Of a stretch of 8,127 bases of DNA, positions 1,780 through 7,889 are shown piece after piece. The first letter of the stretch is position 1, and each line of letters begins with the position of its first letter. The translations under genes and the position numbers were made by a program. Origin of the DNA: a virus (Duplodnaviria > Heunggongvirae > Uroviricota > Caudoviricetes); IMG/VR virus record IMGVR_UViG_2713896799_000002, positions 1 to 8,127 of that record; one strand, 5' to 3'. Below the pieces are notes generated by a model. It ran no database searches. It was given only the letters and a program-made list of their open reading frames with translations, and had not been told where the DNA came from.

Positions 1780-1988
1780 GCACAGAAGAAGCCAGAGAAA
1801 TGATACAGCGGTACCGTGAAGCGGAAATGGCCGTACTGGAGGGGAAGTCTGTCACCTTCAACGGACAGCAACTGACGCTGGAAAGCCTTTCTCAGATCCG
1901 CGCCGGACGTCAGGAGTGGGAACGCAGGCTTGCCGCGATGGTGAGCCGCAGGCGGGGAAAACCGGGATTTAAACTGGCGAGGTTTTAA
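1776..1988 (+). CDS. W: Head completion / head-tail joining protein, gpW family
   Basis: About 70 aa with the C-terminal RRRGxxGF motif typical of lambda gpW. AGGAGG at 1764-1769 lies 6 nt before GTG 1776, and the GTG overlaps the terminase stop (GTGA). The track ORF starts at the in-frame ATG 1752, which is a less likely start. The stop TAA overlaps the portal ATG (TAATG). Confidence 0.8.
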   Translation: MSTEEAREMIQRYREAEMAVLEGKSVTFNGQQLTLESLSQIRAGRQEWERRLAAMVSRRRGKPGFKLARF

Positions 1989-3490
1989 TGGCAATTATTG
2001 ATGATGTGATAGGCGTGTTCTCTCCAGGCTGGAAAGCGGCCAGACTGCGTTCAAGGGCGTTAATCATGGCCTATGAGGCGGTGAAACCGACCCGGACACA
2101 TAAAGCCCGGCGTGAAAATCGATCTGCTGATCAACTCAGTAAATATGGTGCGGTTTCCCTGCGGGAGCAGGCCCGTTTTCTGGATATCAATCATGACCTG
2201 GTGATTGGTGTGTTTGACAAGCTTGAAGAGCGGGTGATTGGTGCCAGAGGAATTACTGTGGAGCCTCAGCCATTACGAAAAAACGGGGAAATGGCGGCAG
2301 AGCTGGCTGCGGATATCCGCCGGTTGTGGGCTGAATGGTCCGTGAGTCCGGATGTGACAGGGCAGTATACCCGTCCCGTGCTTGAGCGTTTACTGCTGCG
2401 GACCTGGCTGCGGGATGGTGAAGTGTTTGCGCAGATGGTCAGTGGTGCGGGAAACGGTCTGGAACGGACGGCGGGAGTGCCATTCTGGCTTGAAGCGATG
2501 GAGCCGGATTTTGTTCCCATGCACAGTGATGAATCCGCCGGGCTGAATCAGGGGGTTTTTCTTGATGAGTGGGGCAGACCGAAAAAATATCTGGTTTATA
2601 AAAATTATCCGGTCAGTGGTCGGCAGAGTGATACGAAAGAAATCGCCGCCGGAAAAATGATCCACCTGAAGTTCACTCGTCGTCTGCATCAGACGCGAGG
2701 CTCATCCATGTTATCGGGGGTGCTGATGCGGATCAGTGCCCTTAAGGAGTATGAGGATGCGGAACTGACAGCGGCGCGTATTGCTGCGGCGCTGGGACTG
2801 TATATCCGTAAAGGTGACGGACAGGACTATGAAGATCCGGGGATCAAAGAAACCGAGCGGGAAGTCCATATCACCCCGGGGATTATTTATGACGATTTGC
2901 GCAAGGGCGAGGATATCGGCATGGTCAAATCCGATCGTCCCAATCCCAACCTTGAAACTTTCCGCAACGGCCAGTTGCGTGCAGTGGCAGCTGGCAGTCG
3001 TCTGAGTTTTTCCAGTGCGGCGCGTAACTATAACGGCACCTACAGCGCCCAGCGGCAGGAGCTGGTCGAGTCCACGGATGGTTACCTGATCCTGCAGGAC
3101 TGTTTTATTGGTGCGGTAACCCGCCCGGTGTACCGGACATGGCTGAATATGGTGGTTGCGGCAGGTCTGCTGAAAATTCCGGCGGATGTGGAGATGAAGA
3201 CGCTATATAACGCGACGTATTCCGGTCCGGTGATGCCGTGGATCGACCCGGTTAAGGAGGCTGAAGCCTGGCGGATACAGATCCGGGGTGGTGCCGCGAC
3301 GGAATCCGACTGGATCCGCGCAGGCGGGCGCAACCCGGATGAGGTCAAACGTCGCCGTAAGGCTGAAACTGAGGAAAATCGCAGGCTGGGGCTGGTCTTT
3401 GATACTGACCCCGCTAACGACAAAGGAGGCAACAGTGCCGGAACTGAACAACAGCGTCAGCAGGCCACCGACAGCCAGCATGAAGAATAA
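1988..3490 (+). CDS. Phage portal protein
   Basis: Uninterrupted 500-aa ORF with the size and position expected for a portal (after terminase and W, before the protease) and an acidic C-terminal tail. Start is coupled to the W stop. Confidence 0.85.
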   Translation: MAIIDDVIGVFSPGWKAARLRSRALIMAYEAVKPTRTHKARRENRSADQLSKYGAVSLREQARFLDINHDLVIGVFDKLEERVIGARGITVEPQPLRKNGEMAAELAADIRRLWAEWSVSPDVTGQYTRPVLERLLLRTWLRDGEVFAQMVSGAGNGLERTAGVPFWLEAMEPDFVPMHSDESAGLNQGVFLDEWGRPKKYLVYKNYPVSGRQSDTKEIAAGKMIHLKFTRRLHQTRGSSMLSGVLMRISALKEYEDAELTAARIAAALGLYIRKGDGQDYEDPGIKETEREVHITPGIIYDDLRKGEDIGMVKSDRPNPNLETFRNGQLRAVAAGSRLSFSSAARNYNGTYSAQRQELVESTDGYLILQDCFIGAVTRPVYRTWLNMVVAAGLLKIPADVEMKTLYNATYSGPVMPWIDPVKEAEAWRIQIRGGAATESDWIRAGGRNPDEVKRRRKAETEENRRLGLVFDTDPANDKGGNSAGTEQQRQQATDSQHEE

Positions 3491-4499
3491 ATCCTGGTTC
3501 AGGATGCAGGCGGGTGGTCAGGGTGAGGCGGATATTTATATTTATGATGAGATTGGTTTCTGGGGCGTCACCGCGAAGCAGTTTGTCAGCGATATGAATG
3601 CCCTGGGTGATATCACCCACATTAATCTCCACATCAACTCACCGGGTGGCGATGTCTTTGAAGGCATCGCCATTTTTAATGCCCTGAAAAATCACGGTGC
3701 GGCCATTACCGTGTATGTGGATGGCGTTGCCGCCTCGATGGCATCCCTGATTGCGATGGCCGGTGACACGGTCATTATGCCGGAAAATGCCTTCATGATG
3801 ATCCATAAACCCTGGGGGATCAGCGGTGGTGATGCGGAGAAAATGCGCACTTATGCCGAACGTCTGGACAAACTTGAGTCGGTTATGGTGCCGGTATATG
3901 CGCAGAAAACCGGAAAAACCACCGATGAAATTGCCGCCATGCTGGCGGATGAGACCTGGATGTCCGGTGCCGAGTGTCTGGCACACGGATTTGCTGACCA
4001 GGTGACGCCAGCCGTTAAGGCAATGGCATGTATTCAGTCAAAACGTACAGAGGAATTTAAAAAGATGCCGGAATCCATCCGAAATATGATCACGCAGCCA
4101 CACAACAGTGCCCCGCGTGATACCACAGTGACAATCCCTGCACCGGCGGTAACAGAACCATCACCGGTACCGGCAGTGTCTGATGAGGCGACCATTCGCG
4201 CCCGCGTTATGGCTGAGCAGAAAGCCCGCATGTCAGGCATTAACGATCTGTTTGCCATGTTTGGCGGGCGCTATCAGGCGCTTCAGGCGCAGTGTGTGGC
4301 CGATCCTGACTGTTCGCTGGAAATGGCCCGCGAGCGCCTTCTGAATGAAATGGGCAAGGAGTCCTCGCCGACCAACAAAAACACACCGGCCCATATTTAT
4401 GCCGGAAACGGCAATTTTGTGGGAGACGGATCCGCCAGGCGATGCTGGCCCGTGCCGGATTTGAAAATGTCGAGAAGGATAATGTCTATAACGGGATGA
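3435..4499 (+). CDS. ClpP-like (S14) prohead protease with C-terminal scaffold-like region; probably the 5' part of a tripartite protease-scaffold-capsid gene split by a frameshift near 4428
   Basis: The N-terminal part (ADIYIYDEIGF...INSPGGDV...MASLIAMAGD) looks like a ClpP-family serine protease, followed by a Pro/Ala-rich then helical-looking region. AAGGAGG at 3424-3430 precedes GTG 3435; alternative starts are ATG 3480 (overlapping the portal stop) and the track's ATG 3288. The last ~20 aa before the stop at 4499 look like out-of-frame translation. Confidence 0.75.
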   Translation: MPELNNSVSRPPTASMKNKSWFRMQAGGQGEADIYIYDEIGFWGVTAKQFVSDMNALGDITHINLHINSPGGDVFEGIAIFNALKNHGAAITVYVDGVAASMASLIAMAGDTVIMPENAFMMIHKPWGISGGDAEKMRTYAERLDKLESVMVPVYAQKTGKTTDEIAAMLADETWMSGAECLAHGFADQVTPAVKAMACIQSKRTEEFKKMPESIRNMITQPHNSAPRDTTVTIPAPAVTEPSPVPAVSDEATIRARVMAEQKARMSGINDLFAMFGGRYQALQAQCVADPDCSLEMARERLLNEMGKESSPTNKNTPAHIYAGNGNFVGDGSARRCWPVPDLKMSRRIMSITG

Positions 4500-5458
4500 C
4501 CCTGCGTGAATGGGCTCGCATGTCACTGACCGAGCGTGGTATTGGGGTGGCCAGTTATAACCCCATGCAGATGGTCGGGCTGGCGCTGACGCACAGCACC
4601 TCTGATTTTGGCAATATTCTGCTGGATGTGTCGAACAAGGGGCTGATCCAGGGCTGGGAGGAATCAGAAGAAACCTTCCAGAAGTGGACCCGTAAGGGAC
4701 GCCTGTCAGACTTCAAAACAGCGTATCGCGTGGGGATGGGCGGTTTTGGTTCTCTGCGTCAGGTTCGTGAAGGGGCGGAGTATAAATACATCACCACCTC
4801 AGATCGCAAGGAGACCATTGCTCTGGCCACTTACGGGGAGATTTTCTCCATCACCCGCCAGGCCATTATCAATGATGACCTGAATATGCTGGTTGACGTG
4901 CCGATGAAGATGGGGCGTGCGGCGAAGGCAACGATTGGTGACCTGGTCTACAAGGTGCTGACGGATAACCCGAAACTGTCAGACGGTAAGGCGCTGTTCC
5001 ATGCCGATCACAAAAATATTGCCACCGGCGGGATCTCCGTTTCCGGACTGGATGCGGCCCGTCAGATGATGCGCCTGCAGAAAGAAGGCGATCGCGCCCT
5101 GAATATCCGCCCGGCCTTCATGCTGGTCCCTGTGGCACTGGAGACGGTGGCGAACCAGACCATCAAATCGGCCAGTGTGAAAGGGGCGGATGCAAACGCC
5201 GGTGTCATTAACCCTATCCAGAACTTTGCTGAGGTGATTGCGGAAGCGCGTCTTGATGCGGCAGATCCGAAAACCTGGTATCTTGCGGCGGCACAGGGCA
5301 CCGACACCATTGAAGTGGCCTGGCTCGATGGTGTGGACACGCCATACATTGATCAGCAGGAAGGTTTCACCACTGACGGCATTGCCACAAAAATCCGTAT
5401 TGATGCCGGAGTGGCACCACTTGACTGGCGCGGGCTGGTGCGTTCGTCGGTGGCCTGA
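4442..5458 (+). CDS. Major capsid protein segment; likely the 3' part of the protease-scaffold-capsid gene
   Basis: 338-aa ORF ending in a tandem stop TGATAA at 5456-5461 and followed by a terminator. Its frame stays open upstream of ATG 4442 back into the end of the protease ORF (reads ...GRRIRQAMLARAGFENVEK), and ATG 4442 has no good RBS. Confidence 0.75.
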   Translation: MLARAGFENVEKDNVYNGMTLREWARMSLTERGIGVASYNPMQMVGLALTHSTSDFGNILLDVSNKGLIQGWEESEETFQKWTRKGRLSDFKTAYRVGMGGFGSLRQVREGAEYKYITTSDRKETIALATYGEIFSITRQAIINDDLNMLVDVPMKMGRAAKATIGDLVYKVLTDNPKLSDGKALFHADHKNIATGGISVSGLDAARQMMRLQKEGDRALNIRPAFMLVPVALETVANQTIKSASVKGADANAGVINPIQNFAEVIAEARLDAADPKTWYLAAAQGTDTIEVAWLDGVDTPYIDQQEGFTTDGIATKIRIDAGVAPLDWRGLVRSSVA

Positions 5459-5480: not shown

Positions 5481-5499
5481 GCCCGAAAGGGCTTTTTTT
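5481..5499 (+). terminator. Putative Rho-independent terminator or attenuator after the capsid gene
   Basis: GCCC-GAAA-GGGC hairpin (4-bp GC stem, GNRA-type loop) followed directly by a run of seven T, 23 nt after the capsid stop. Confidence 0.5.
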
Positions 5500-5510: not shown

Positions 5511-5528
5511 ACAGCCCCCGGGGGCTGT
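5511..5528 (+). repeat. Perfect 18-bp palindrome ACAGCCCCCGGGGGCTGT between the terminator and the next gene's RBS
   Basis: Read directly from the sequence. It contains a CCCGGG core and sits about 3 nt upstream of GGAGAG (5531-5536) and ATG 5545. Confidence 0.45.
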
Positions 5529-5544
5529 CCGGAGAGACAGCATT

Positions 5545-5870
5545 ATGGCGAAAAATTTTGTACAGGACGGTACCACCATTGAACTGGTGAATGCCGGAGA
5601 TCAGACCATTCTGAGCGGTGCCGCGGTGGTGGTCGGCAGTATGGTGGCAGTGGCCATTACCGATATTCCTGCCGGGGATGTCGGTGACGGTTTTGCCGAA
5701 GGCGTGTTCCTGCTGCCCAAACAGTCTGCTGACGATATTCAGGCCGGTGCGGTGGTTTATCTGAAGGACGGGGCTGTGCAGCTGCTGCAGACGGTGCGGT
5801 GGCAGCGGGAGTAGCCTGGGAAAATGCTCCAGCAAACACCGCCACTGTGGCGGTAAAAATCAATGTCTGA
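5545..5870 (+). CDS. DUF2190-like small head-associated protein (putative decoration/cement-type), frameshifted near 5770-5790
   Basis: Begins MAKNFVQDGTTIELVNAG, with GGAGAG 8 nt upstream of ATG 5545. The frame +1 part stops at TAG 5812-5814, but the -1 frame from about 5775 to TGA 5868-5870 reads AAAADGAVAAGVAWENAPANTATVAVKINV, a plausible C-terminus. The track's ATG 5500 abuts the terminator T-run and lacks an RBS. Confidence 0.55.
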
Positions 5871-6144
5871 TCTGTTTGCGCGAATGTGTTGCCGGATGGA
5901 CGTGGCGACCGTTCGGATGATGGGCAAACAGGCGGAGATTAACGGCGTCGTGTATGACGTGATGCCGGAGGAAGAGTCTGCGGATATGGGGGCGCTTTCC
6001 GGCAGTCAGTTGTCACTGGTGGTGTTTTCAGCGCAGTACCGGCCGGCCCGCGATGATGTGGTTGTGTTTGACGGTCGCTCACTGGTGGTGACCCGTTATG
6101 ACACGTACAACGGTAAACCCCGGATTTTTGTCGAGCAGGAATAA
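5863..6144 (+). CDS. Head-tail attachment protein, lambda gpFII-like
   Basis: Intact 93-aa ORF. Its N-terminal half (LFARMCCRMDVATVRMMGKQAEI) parallels lambda FII as I recall it (LFDAAIARADETIRGYMGTSATI), and it sits immediately before Z. ATG overlaps the upstream stop (ATGTCTGA). Confidence 0.55.
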   Translation: MSDLFARMCCRMDVATVRMMGKQAEINGVVYDVMPEEESADMGALSGSQLSLVVFSAQYRPARDDVVVFDGRSLVVTRYDTYNGKPRIFVEQE

Positions 6145-6146
6145 GT

Positions 6147-6738
6147 ATGGCGATAAAAGGAATGGCTCAGGCCATGCGAAATCTTGATGCGCTGGATCGC
6201 CGTGCCGTTCCCGTGCGGCAGCCACCACGCTTAATCGTGTGGCGGAGTCCATCATCGCGAAAACGGCCTCTTCGGTTGCCCGTGAACTGGCGGTTCCACG
6301 CCGTCTCATCCGTGCCCGTATCCGCCTGCAACGGGCACGGGCCGACAAGGTCAACGCAAAGGTTTACATCACACCGGTAATCTGCCCGTCATAAACTGGG
6401 GAGGCCCGCGTGAGGCTTTCCCGCAGAAAGCGGCGAAAGAAAGGTGAGCGTTCGGTCACGAAAGGCGGTGGCAGTGTGCTGATTGTCGGGAAACGGCGGA
6501 TCCCGAATGCTTTTATTACCCGGCTGGAAAATGGCCGGTGGCATGTGATGCAGCGTATGCCGTGGGCATCGTCGTCCACCGGTGTTGACCGTAAAGGCAG
6601 GCCGAACCGTCTGCCGATTGAAGTGGTGACACCGACGACCGCTGGCGGAACCTTTGAGCGCGAACGTGACCGGATGTACCGGGAGAATTACCGGAACAGC
6701 CATGGCGTATCAGTTACGTTATGAAACGAAAACTGTGA
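6147..6738 (+). pseudogene. Z: Minor tail protein Z (lambda gpZ homologue), broken by at least four frameshifts
   Basis: Lambda Z-like sequence can be followed across three frames: MAIKGMAQAMRNLDALDRRAVP (frame 0), AAATTLNRVAESIIAKTASSVARELAVPRRLIRARIRLQRARADKVNAKVYITP (frame 2), GNLPVI (frame 1), EARVRLSRRKRRKKGERSVTKGGGSVLIVGKRRIPNAFITRLENGRWHVMQR... (frame 2), ...LPEQPWRISYVMKRKL (frame 1, stop TGA 6736-6738). Track ORFs 6147..6380 and 6410..6724 are fragments of it. Confidence 0.8.
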
Positions 6739-7133
6739 GGAGGTTGAAACACCGGGAAATACGGGCGGCCGTTCTGTCAGCCCTGAAGAAAATATTTTGA
6801 GCGGGGGACATGGTTTGACGGGCGACCTGCTTTTATTGACGAGCTGGAACTTCCGGCAGTGGCGGTCTACCTGACGGATGCGTCGGCAGCTGACGAGTTC
6901 GTTGATGAGGACCTGGGGGGTACTGCATATCGAGGTTTTCTCAGGCGAAAGAAACGGATTCGGCACTGGATATGTGGATGGAAGAGAAAATCCTTCCTGC
7001 GCTGGAGGCGGTTCCCGGCCTCAGTGCGTTACTGCTGAAGATGAATCTTCAGGGGTATGACTACCGCCGGGATGATGAGTTTATGATGTGGGGATCGGCA
7101 GATCTCCTGTGGAAAATTACCTACGAGATGTGA
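6735..7133 (+). pseudogene. U: Tail terminator protein U (lambda gpU homologue), broken by at least three frameshifts
   Basis: GTG 6735 overlaps the Z stop (GTGA). Lambda U-like segments: RRLKHREIRAAVLSALKKIF (frame 0, stop 6798-6800), WFDGRPAFIDELELPAVAVYLTDASAADEFVDEDLGG (frame 1), VLHIEVF (frame 2), then ...[55 protein letters not shown] ending at TGA 7131-7133 (frame 0). Track ORF 6878..7060 is a fragment. Confidence 0.75.
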
Positions 7134-7140
7134 GGACGAT

Positions 7141-7889
7141 ATGGCAATACCAAATCCTCTTGAGCCGGTGAAAGGTTCCGGCACCACACTATGGGTGTAC
7201 ACCGGCACTGGTGATGCTTATGCCAACCCGTTGTCAGACGATGAGTGGACGCGCCTGGCAAAAATAAAGGATCTGACCCCCGGCGAGATGACGGCAGAAT
7301 CCTACGATGATAACTATCTGGATGATGAGGATGCTGACTGGGTATCCACCGGGCAGGGGCAGAAATCTGCCGGTGACACCAGTTTTACGCTGGCCTGGAA
7401 GCCGGGCGAGAAAGGGCAGCGCGATTTGATCGCCTGGTTTGACAGCAGTGAGACCCGGGCCTACAAAATCCGTTTCCCGAACGGCACGGTGGATGTGTTC
7501 CGTGGCTGGGTGAGCGCCATTGGTAAAGCGGTGACCGCCAGAGAGGTGATCACCCGTACCGTGAAGATCACCAATATCGGCCGTCCGTCGCTGGCGGAAG
7601 ATCAGGGGACATCACGCCGGTCACCGGTATTACCGTGACGCCATCAACGGGCAATGTGGCAAAAGGTCAGAATATCACCCTGACTGTGGCCGTTCAGCCG
7701 GAAGGGGCGACGGATAAAACCTTCCGCGCCACGTCAGCGAATCAGAATTTCGCCACCATTACCGTGAAAGGGAACACGATCACGGTGAAAGGTGTTGCGG
7801 CCGGTAAAGCGCAGATCCCTGTGGTGACCGGAAATGGTCAGTTTGCGGCAGTGGCAGAAATTACCGTCACGGATGGTGCTGCGGGTTAA
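7141..7889 (+). CDS. V: Major tail tube protein V (lambda gpV homologue), with a frameshift at the GGGG run 7605-7608 separating the C-terminal Ig-like domain
   Basis: Residues 1-160 are highly similar to lambda V as recalled (PNPxxPVKGxGTTLWVY...[18 protein letters not shown]). GAGG sits 5 nt before ATG 7141. Track ORF 7635..7889 (...[10 protein letters not shown]...[23 protein letters not shown]) corresponds to the lambda V C-terminal Ig-like domain in the -1 frame. Confidence 0.85.

Follow-up and report, generated by a model that had tools for sequence, protein, structure and literature searches.

A Gifsy-2-type protease-scaffold-capsid gene broken by a single missing base, probably through a sequence error

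The head genes 3' of the portal gene in the window, that is the whole stretch of 8,127 nucleotides that was analysed, raise the question whether a protease and a capsid protein are encoded there by two genes or by one fused gene that has been split, and in the latter case by what. A preliminary description had placed a protease, a scaffold-like region and a capsid domain consecutively at 3435–5458 and had assigned them to one gene of the Gifsy-2 type. This arrangement is borne out by the Pfam domains and the open reading frames (Table 1), and, judged by its sequence, 3435–5458 is a copy of the already described Gifsy-2-type tripartite capsid gene, a kind of gene that PGAP names routinely. A single uninterrupted frame for all three parts is absent from the sequence as given and present once one G is restored.

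Table 1. Positions of the features of the fusion gene and its 3' neighbourhood in the window.
Feature	Position	Strand	Remarks
Shine-Dalgarno AAAGGAGG	3422–3429	+	5 nt 5' of GTG 3435; sequence inspection
Protease-scaffold ORF, current form	3435–4499	+	354 codons, frame 0, stop 4497–4499
ClpP-like (S14) prohead protease domain	3567–4007	+	Pfam PF00574 CLP_protease, E 6e-37, residues 45–191
Central segment: Pro/Ala-rich linker, then scaffold-like region	4008–4429	+	colinear with the middle of the Gifsy-2 protein
GG where all homologues examined read GGG; frame-breaking single-base deletion	4428–4429	+	
Capsid-domain ORF, HK97 fold	4442–5458	+	338 codons; Phage_capsid_4 PF25209, E 3e-57
ATGA, shared by the stop of the shifted protease ORF and a Met codon in the capsid frame	4496–4499	+	sequence inspection
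Terminator-like hairpin GCCC-GAAA-GGGC, then T7	5481–5499	+	just 3' of the capsid stop; sequence inspection
Head decoration/cement gene (DUF2190, Phage_cement_2)	5545–5814	+	PF09956, E 6e-15

The fusion gene likely starts at GTG 3435, the start used for Stx2_95 and in several Logan/NCBI gene calls (674 aa); ATG 3480, an alternative start, is the choice of PGAP (659 aa). The N-terminal part is predicted to be a catalytic ClpP-like serine protease, its domain scoring 220.8 bits against NCBIfam NF045542 ('head maturation protease, ClpP-related'; cut-off 120) and matching PDB ClpP chains with E-values down to 4e-17. The central segment closes with the motif AGNGNFVGD, conserved in 26 homologues, and its putative scaffold role is suggested by analogy with the Gifsy-2 protein, as the work of Effantin et al. 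(2010) is reported in PMC12315714. The homologous fusion proteins carry the counterpart of 4442–5458 as their C-terminal third. An AlphaFold2 model of the capsid ORF (pLDDT 82.2) was compared with the PDB by Foldseek. Encapsulins and phage capsid proteins, HK97 among them (2fte, 3e8k, 2gp1), made up nearly all of the 50 listed matches, every one of which had a probability of 1.00; E-values were 6e-8 at best and mostly 1e-7 to 1e-6. Taken together, the HMM and structure searches (PF00574, PF25209, NF045540, Foldseek) recovered both the ClpP and the HK97-fold domain expected from the first reading of the sequence.

The interruption is confined to one position. At the junction the window reads GAC-GG-ATC, where CP-1639, Stx2_95 and ASU11 read GAC-GGG-ATC. 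It had been predicted that one extra G at 4428–4429 would give a single gene of about 675 codons, and addition of this base to the window copy of 2024 nt indeed yields 2025 nt, equal to 674 codons plus stop. The repaired gene is nucleotide-identical to the intact genes of four E. coli assemblies (L006, L010, L014 and L015), so that across 3435–5458 the missing G is the sole difference from the L006 gene. Against NF045540 ('ClpP-like prohead protease/major capsid protein fusion protein', cut-off 475 bits) the repaired product scored 995.5 bits over profile positions 2–651 of 652. Each unrepaired ORF spans about half of the profile: the protease ORF reached 415.7 bits, below the cut-off, over positions 2–307, and the capsid ORF 558.6 bits over positions 314–651. 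The frame break at 4428–4429 therefore marks the window copy as a frameshifted or mis-sequenced member of the NF045540 family, and the difference of a single base from a large set of intact homologues is specific and not a chance pattern.

This set was drawn from several sources. Counting close matches that span the gene in one piece, we found a length of 2025 nt in 11 of the 12 phage records at an identity of at least 95% and in 58 of the 60 listed E. coli genomes, with three exceptions: the VT1-Sakai copy lies in two pieces owing to IS629 inserted within the gene, the H63 copy has 2024 nt and its own frameshift at another site, and the H85 match aligned only from query base 8. Furthermore, about 2,000 complete E. 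coli genomes match the fusion gene, 585 of them over at least 80% of the query length, and in the listed genomes among these 585 a single CDS bears the name of the fusion protein. The repaired protein is 99.3% identical to that of CP-1639, and all ten contigs with an identical portal protein carry an intact fusion gene of 659 or 674 aa. An exact-pattern scan of IMG/VR found the intact junction in 66 contigs, whereas the deletion junction gave no exact match in IMG/VR, in the JGI metagenome contigs or in the GTDB representative genomes; since the GTDB scan returned no intact allele either, its result shows only that the junction is absent from species-representative genomes. A search for proteins identical to the products of the split ORFs likewise returned no record. 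The 120 listed clusters of homologous proteins consist mostly of partial or fragmentary calls (215–588 aa), which makes their length distribution uninformative.

The surroundings of the fusion gene were analyzed in the same way. The gene order (terminase, W, portal, fusion gene, cement, FII-like, Z, U, V) is that of Gifsy-2, and the portal protein is identical to reference proteins. At the position equivalent to the hairpin 3' of the capsid stop, whose 4-bp stem lies under the threshold of the terminator scan, mEp460 has an annotated rho-independent terminator. In the cement gene, which has 108 codons in the reference, loss of 1 nt near 5783 shifts the C-terminus, and altogether six genes are broken, namely terminase, fusion gene, cement, Z, U and V. 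Compared with five close references, the window has lost 55 nt in 23 private deletion events, against one insertion and about 2–3 private substitutions. Besides 4428–4429, the 23 other indels lie at 352, 362, 384, 5518, 5783, 6209, 6370 and 6395, within 6605–6943, and at 7604 and 7998. The deletions are clustered, with three of 1 nt within 33 nt (352–384) and 14 events within 6605–6943, and 8 of the 13 one-base deletions fall in runs of at least three identical bases, which make up only 17.5% of positions.

Since private deletions far outnumber private substitutions across the window, a sequence-quality artefact is the most likely cause of the split. We consider it probable, though with considerable doubt remaining, that the fused gene is of the tripartite capsid type and that its split is not a property of the phage but a deletion error introduced where the source assembly is of low quality. 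One G would have been lost from the GGG run at 4428–4429 during base calling or assembly, producing the apparent two ORFs. The gene would then encode one polypeptide of 674 residues and about 73 kDa with a ClpP-like serine protease, a linker and scaffold-like middle and an HK97-fold major capsid protein. On the model of Gifsy-2, this fusion protein may assemble into a T=7 procapsid and lose its N-terminal two fifths to the built-in protease, and the resulting shell would be cemented by the DUF2190 protein encoded downstream.

About seven of the 23 deletion events coincide with sites that differ between two alleles of co-resident prophages (L006 and L008 types). A consensus collapsed from repeats was considered on these grounds and found weakly suggestive only; position 4428 is not among these sites.

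Slippage in homopolymers also occurs as genuine mutation, and E. coli lambdoid prophages do decay. It is conceivable, though distinctly less likely than an error in the sequence, that the frameshift is real, that slippage in GGG made the fusion gene a pseudogene in a decaying, defective lambdoid prophage, and that with terminase, cement, Z, U and V also broken no heads are formed. The same gene has been disrupted independently elsewhere, by the IS629 insertion in VT1-Sakai and in the RefSeq genome NZ_CP077531 by a G6-to-G5 frameshift, for which PGAP flags the gene as 'frameshifted' and a pseudogene. Fragmentary calls of the fusion gene occur on megabase contigs (e.g. P0040 and P0097), and the further broken genes in the window fit what is expected of a cryptic prophage. 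Moreover, natural pseudogene decay is said to be dominated by deletions, a bias in bacterial pseudogenes reportedly described by Mira et al. in 2001. In spontaneous mutation of E. coli, however, the indel-to-substitution ratio is about 1:10, from which some 24 private indels against 2–3 private substitutions depart roughly a hundredfold. Apart from this, the fusion gene and 5.4 kb of its surroundings are identical to intact copies and thus leave no time for decay, the dense clusters of deletions resemble a local failure of read quality, and no collection that was searched yielded the deletion allele. Were the split real, the prophage would be dead for several further reasons too, and would represent merely one more defective prophage.

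Far less probable is a functional arrangement of two ORFs, either by programmed −1 ribosomal frameshifting or as a protease-scaffold protein and a capsid protein acting in trans like lambda C/Nu3 and E, with the capsid starting at ATG 4442 or at the ATGA. As had been noted in the preliminary description, the capsid frame is open 5' of ATG 4442, namely for 93 nt as far as 4349, so that the geometry of the overlap would permit a −1 shift; in addition, the stop of the shifted protease ORF shares an ATGA with a Met codon in the capsid frame, at which translation might re-initiate provided that the split is real. In lambda and HK97, protease and scaffold are able to act in trans. Against this, the overlap 4349–4499 contains no slippery heptamer of the form X_XXY_YYZ, the local RNA folds no better than shuffled sequence (z = 0.51), and an Rfam search gave no match; on these grounds, and for want of conservation of the layout in two frames, programmed −1 frameshifting was rejected. 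The weak ribosome-binding site claimed for ATG 4442 was confirmed, its context (ccaggcgATG) offering a poor Shine-Dalgarno sequence with a weak AGG 2 nt before the codon, and ATG 4496 likewise lacks a good one. Neither is the Met conserved: none of the homologues has a separate capsid gene or begins a gene at MLARAGF, the Met of the window aligning with L, V, I or Y. Just 5' of MLARAGF, the motif NGN-x-VGD is nearly invariant in the fused frame of homologues and would be parted from the capsid domain by the split, and the final 23 codons of the protease-scaffold ORF (4430–4496) are out of frame with respect to homologues. A naturally separate capsid gene was consequently rejected as well, conservation crossing the junction. 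The two-ORF layout is kept in no homologue examined, the few interrupted copies being broken at other sites, and the window contains further essential genes that are broken. Least probable of all is a real and tolerated deletion that converted the fused gene in one step into a lambda-like pair, with the capsid protein made by re-initiation at the ATGA and the scaffold acting in trans, which would offer a natural snapshot of fused and split head-gene architectures interconverting.

The finding as a whole has little biological weight; the fused protease-scaffold-capsid gene has been known since the 2010 work on Gifsy-2 and has a dedicated NCBIfam model. The practical value of the finding is that of a quality flag for this source: in view of the deletion-dominated error signature, the split terminase, Z, U, V and capsid ORFs should not be taken as biology without reads.

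Compared with known systems, the closest relatives of the window gene are the NF045540 members of E. coli lambdoid and Stx prophages (CP-1639, Stx2_95, ASU11, mEp460 and cdtI), and nucleotide identities of 95–99% are reached with many Stx-converting and other E. coli prophages. The modules of lambda (C/Nu3 and E) and HK97 (gp4 and gp5, the latter with delta domain and capsid), namely maturation protease, scaffold and HK97-fold shell, are shared with the window, as is their position 3' of the portal gene, and the split ORFs superficially resemble the lambda order of a protease-scaffold gene followed by a capsid gene. By sequence, however, neither the lambda nor the HK97 protease is ClpP-like, and in both phages the genes are naturally separate and each has start signals of its own, whereas the window capsid ORF has neither a conserved start nor a ribosome-binding site.

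According to PMC12315714, which cites Effantin et al. (Virology 2010, 402:355), the genes for protease and coat protein are fused in Gifsy-2, and self-processing during maturation of a T=7 procapsid and decoration by a trimeric cement protein are attributed to the same study in PMC8538268 and PMC12315714. Alignment of the repaired product with Gifsy-2 STM1034.3n supports the assignment to this type, with 60% identity over 696 columns from end to end, colinear through the junction and unbroken over residues 195–340 between the protease and capsid domains. Both proteins have the order ClpP-like protease, scaffold-like centre and HK97-fold capsid protein, and the SMAS and MMIHKP motifs of the window protease domain recur in Gifsy-2. 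The neighbours are matched too, with a lambda-type portal upstream and DUF2190 cement, FII-like, Z, U and V genes downstream. Small indels at the N-terminus and in the linker account for the 22 residues by which the repaired window copy falls short of the Gifsy-2 protein (696 aa). The Gifsy-2 gene is uninterrupted, whereas the window copy as given is broken by the 1-nt deletion.

As outlined in the table, the 8.1-kb window corresponds to the module for head and proximal tail in a lambdoid prophage of E. coli type, and its gene order is also found in ten contigs encoding an identical portal protein.

Genes of the head and proximal tail module and their positions in the window
Feature	Position	Remark
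Terminase large subunit	to 1779	enters from left end; GpA_nuclease
W-like small gene	1752-1988	
Portal gene	1988-3490	lambda family
ORFs of the split fusion gene	3435-4499 and 4442-5458	
DUF2190/Phage_cement_2 gene	5545-5814	
FII-like gene	5863-6144	'Gifsy-2' family
Z/U region	6147-7140	fragmented
Tail tube gene V	from 7141 onward	

The first ORF of the split gene carries a ClpP domain (PF00574, residues 45-191, E 6e-37) and the second encodes a Phage_capsid_4 protein (PF25209, E 3e-57). The preliminary description had read both as one protease-scaffold-capsid gene (3435-5458) interrupted by a single lacking G, an observation that proved correct in all its details. Upstream of ATG 4442 the capsid frame stays open for 93 nt, from position 4349 on, the ATG itself is preceded by a poor ribosome-binding site (ccaggcg), and positions 4425-4432 read GAC GG ATC, compared to GAC GGG ATC in CP-1639, Stx2_95 and ASU11. 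Restoring one G at 4428-4429 results in a single gene of 674 codons plus stop, where about 675 codons had been estimated. A strong Shine-Dalgarno sequence, AAAGGAGG, lies 5 nt upstream of GTG 3435. Annotators differ in the start of the gene, which is set either at GTG 3435 (674 aa) or, by PGAP, at ATG 3480 (659 aa), the latter having no Shine-Dalgarno sequence.

Among close matches spanning the gene in one piece, its length was 2025 nt in 11 of the 12 phage records (≥95% identity) and in 58 of the best 60 RefSeq complete E. coli genomes, versus 2024 nt in the window; these genomes annotate one CDS, named 'ClpP-like prohead protease/major capsid protein fusion protein'. The exceptions were VT1-Sakai (AP000400.1; Stx1 phage of E. 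coli O157 Sakai), matched in two pieces with an IS629 within the fusion gene, and two E. coli matches, of which H63 (2024 nt) has its own frameshift at a different site and H85 has an alignment that does not begin until query base 8.

The product of the repaired gene shares 99.3% identity with that of CP-1639 and scored 995.5 bits (cut-off 475 bits) over positions 2-651 of 652 of NCBIfam NF045540, the profile of the fusion protein, on which the unrepaired ORFs cover positions 2-307 and 314-651. Solved ClpP structures were matched by the protease part in a sequence search. The capsid ORF is predicted to be an HK97-fold protein, its AlphaFold2 model (pLDDT 82) matching encapsulins, HK97 and other phage capsids in the PDB with probability 1.00. 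The Gifsy-2 alignment, the NF045540 score and the ClpP and HK97-fold domains identify a Gifsy-2-type tripartite gene, and the preliminary interpretation of such a gene split by one lost G is right. Homologues with protease and capsid in genes of their own and a conserved capsid N-terminus were looked for and not found: the motif AGNGN-x-VGD, which precedes the window's capsid ATG, is near-invariant in the fused frame in 26 homologues (56-84% identity), and these carry L, V, I or Y in place of the Met of 'MLARAGF'. Fusion is the ancestral state and is under selection. In public protein clusters, PF25209 was also seen joined to PF05136 (portal), PF05876 (terminase ATPase) or PF07278 (DUF1441) (P0030, P0037, P0039, P0042 and P0051; P0039 on 33 contigs), which may be deletion-fusion remnants of the head module in cryptic prophages.

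The closest references (L006, L010, L014 and L015) are 98.8% identical to the window. Since no substitution separates them from it between 1021 and 5520, the segment 3435-5458 differs from the intact gene only by the lacking G. Over the whole window only about 2-3 private substitutions (502, 6806 and a few alignment artefacts) and one private insertion were found against five references, compared to 23 private deletion events with a combined loss of 55 nt. Three one-base losses at 352, 362 and 384 (C5, G4 and G4 runs) lie no more than 33 nt apart inside the terminase gene (net -3) and create a TAA stop at 379-381, after which the frame is regained, and 14 deletion events, some of which remove 10, 6 and 5 nt, fall into 6605-6943. 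Runs of at least three hold 8 of the 13 one-base deletions but 17.5% of the reference positions. Six genes (terminase, fusion, cement, Z, U and V) are broken, yet the portal protein matches the reference proteins exactly. In natural mutation, each indel is accompanied by about ten substitutions. Here indels outnumber substitutions by about 10:1, almost all of them are deletions and they cluster tightly, a pattern characteristic of base-calling or consensus errors, and we therefore favour, with fair confidence, a sequencing or assembly artefact at 4428-4429, the single-base defect being probably technical. Exact matches to the junction with the deletion were absent from IMG/VR and JGI metagenome contigs, whereas 66 IMG/VR contigs carry the intact one.

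The main rival, a real split in a truly decayed prophage that could make no heads, package no DNA and build no tails, has a clearly lower probability. An independent G6-to-G5 frameshift, flagged as a pseudogene, occurs in the fusion gene of one RefSeq genome (NZ_CP077531), the IS629 insertion of VT1-Sakai is a natural, well-supported route of its inactivation, and bacterial pseudogenes are known for a bias towards deletions. A functional split or recoding is very unlikely: a programmed frameshift is opposed by the absence of an X_XXY_YYZ heptamer from the 4349-4499 overlap, a fold that does not improve on shuffled sequence (z = 0.51), no Rfam match for the region and the occurrence of this two-frame layout in none of the relatives examined, the only curiosity being the ATGA (4496-4499) that ends the shifted protease ORF and overlaps an in-frame capsid Met, where re-initiation could occur if the deletion were real.

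Further downstream, the Z/U genes (6147-7140) hold no fewer than 15 deletion events that set them apart from every reference (10 nt at 6697, 6 nt at 6605, 5 nt at 6636 and 6717), leaving both Z and U unreadable in the densest defect cluster of the window. Gene V (7141-7889), a single 249-codon gene in the references, has a G5-to-G4 deletion at 7604 that puts the tail-tube domain (ORF 7141-7638) and the C-terminal Big_2 domain (ORF 7635-7889) into separate frames. Within 5520-6622 the window departs from L006 at about 40 further sites, which are ordinary polymorphism, because all match the allele of two other references (L008/L005). They are finely interleaved with sites matching the L006 allele, and this stretch could represent either a naturally occurring allele of the cement-to-Z region, intermediate or mosaic in type, or a consensus in which two co-resident prophages are mixed. 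Between the cement start at 5545 and a hairpin resembling a terminator that follows the capsid gene (5481-5499) lies a perfect 18-nt palindrome, ACAGCCCCC/GGGGGCTGT (5511-5528), whose stem is kept and loop varied in the references (L006: CAGCCCC-ACA-GGGGCTG); it may serve as a further terminator or as a site of processing that sets the capsid-to-cement ratio.

The gene family is already known, and the single-base defect in the window is trivial. According to Effantin et al. 2010, as cited in PMC12315714 and PMC8538268, the Gifsy-2 protease and coat genes are fused. In analogy to Gifsy-2, a T=7 procapsid would be built from the 674-residue chain, whose middle segment would serve as a covalently attached scaffold similar to the delta domain of HK97; the ClpP-like domain would then remove the N-terminal part, and trimers of the downstream cement protein would stabilise the expanded shell. 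Of this route, the sequence reveals the domains and their order. Gifsy-2 has the same gene order as the window, and its tripartite capsid gene STM1034.3n aligns with the repaired protein over the whole length at 60% identity, the junction being unbroken (GNGNFVGDGIRQAMLARAGFE versus GNGNITGDAVRAAVMARAGYE).
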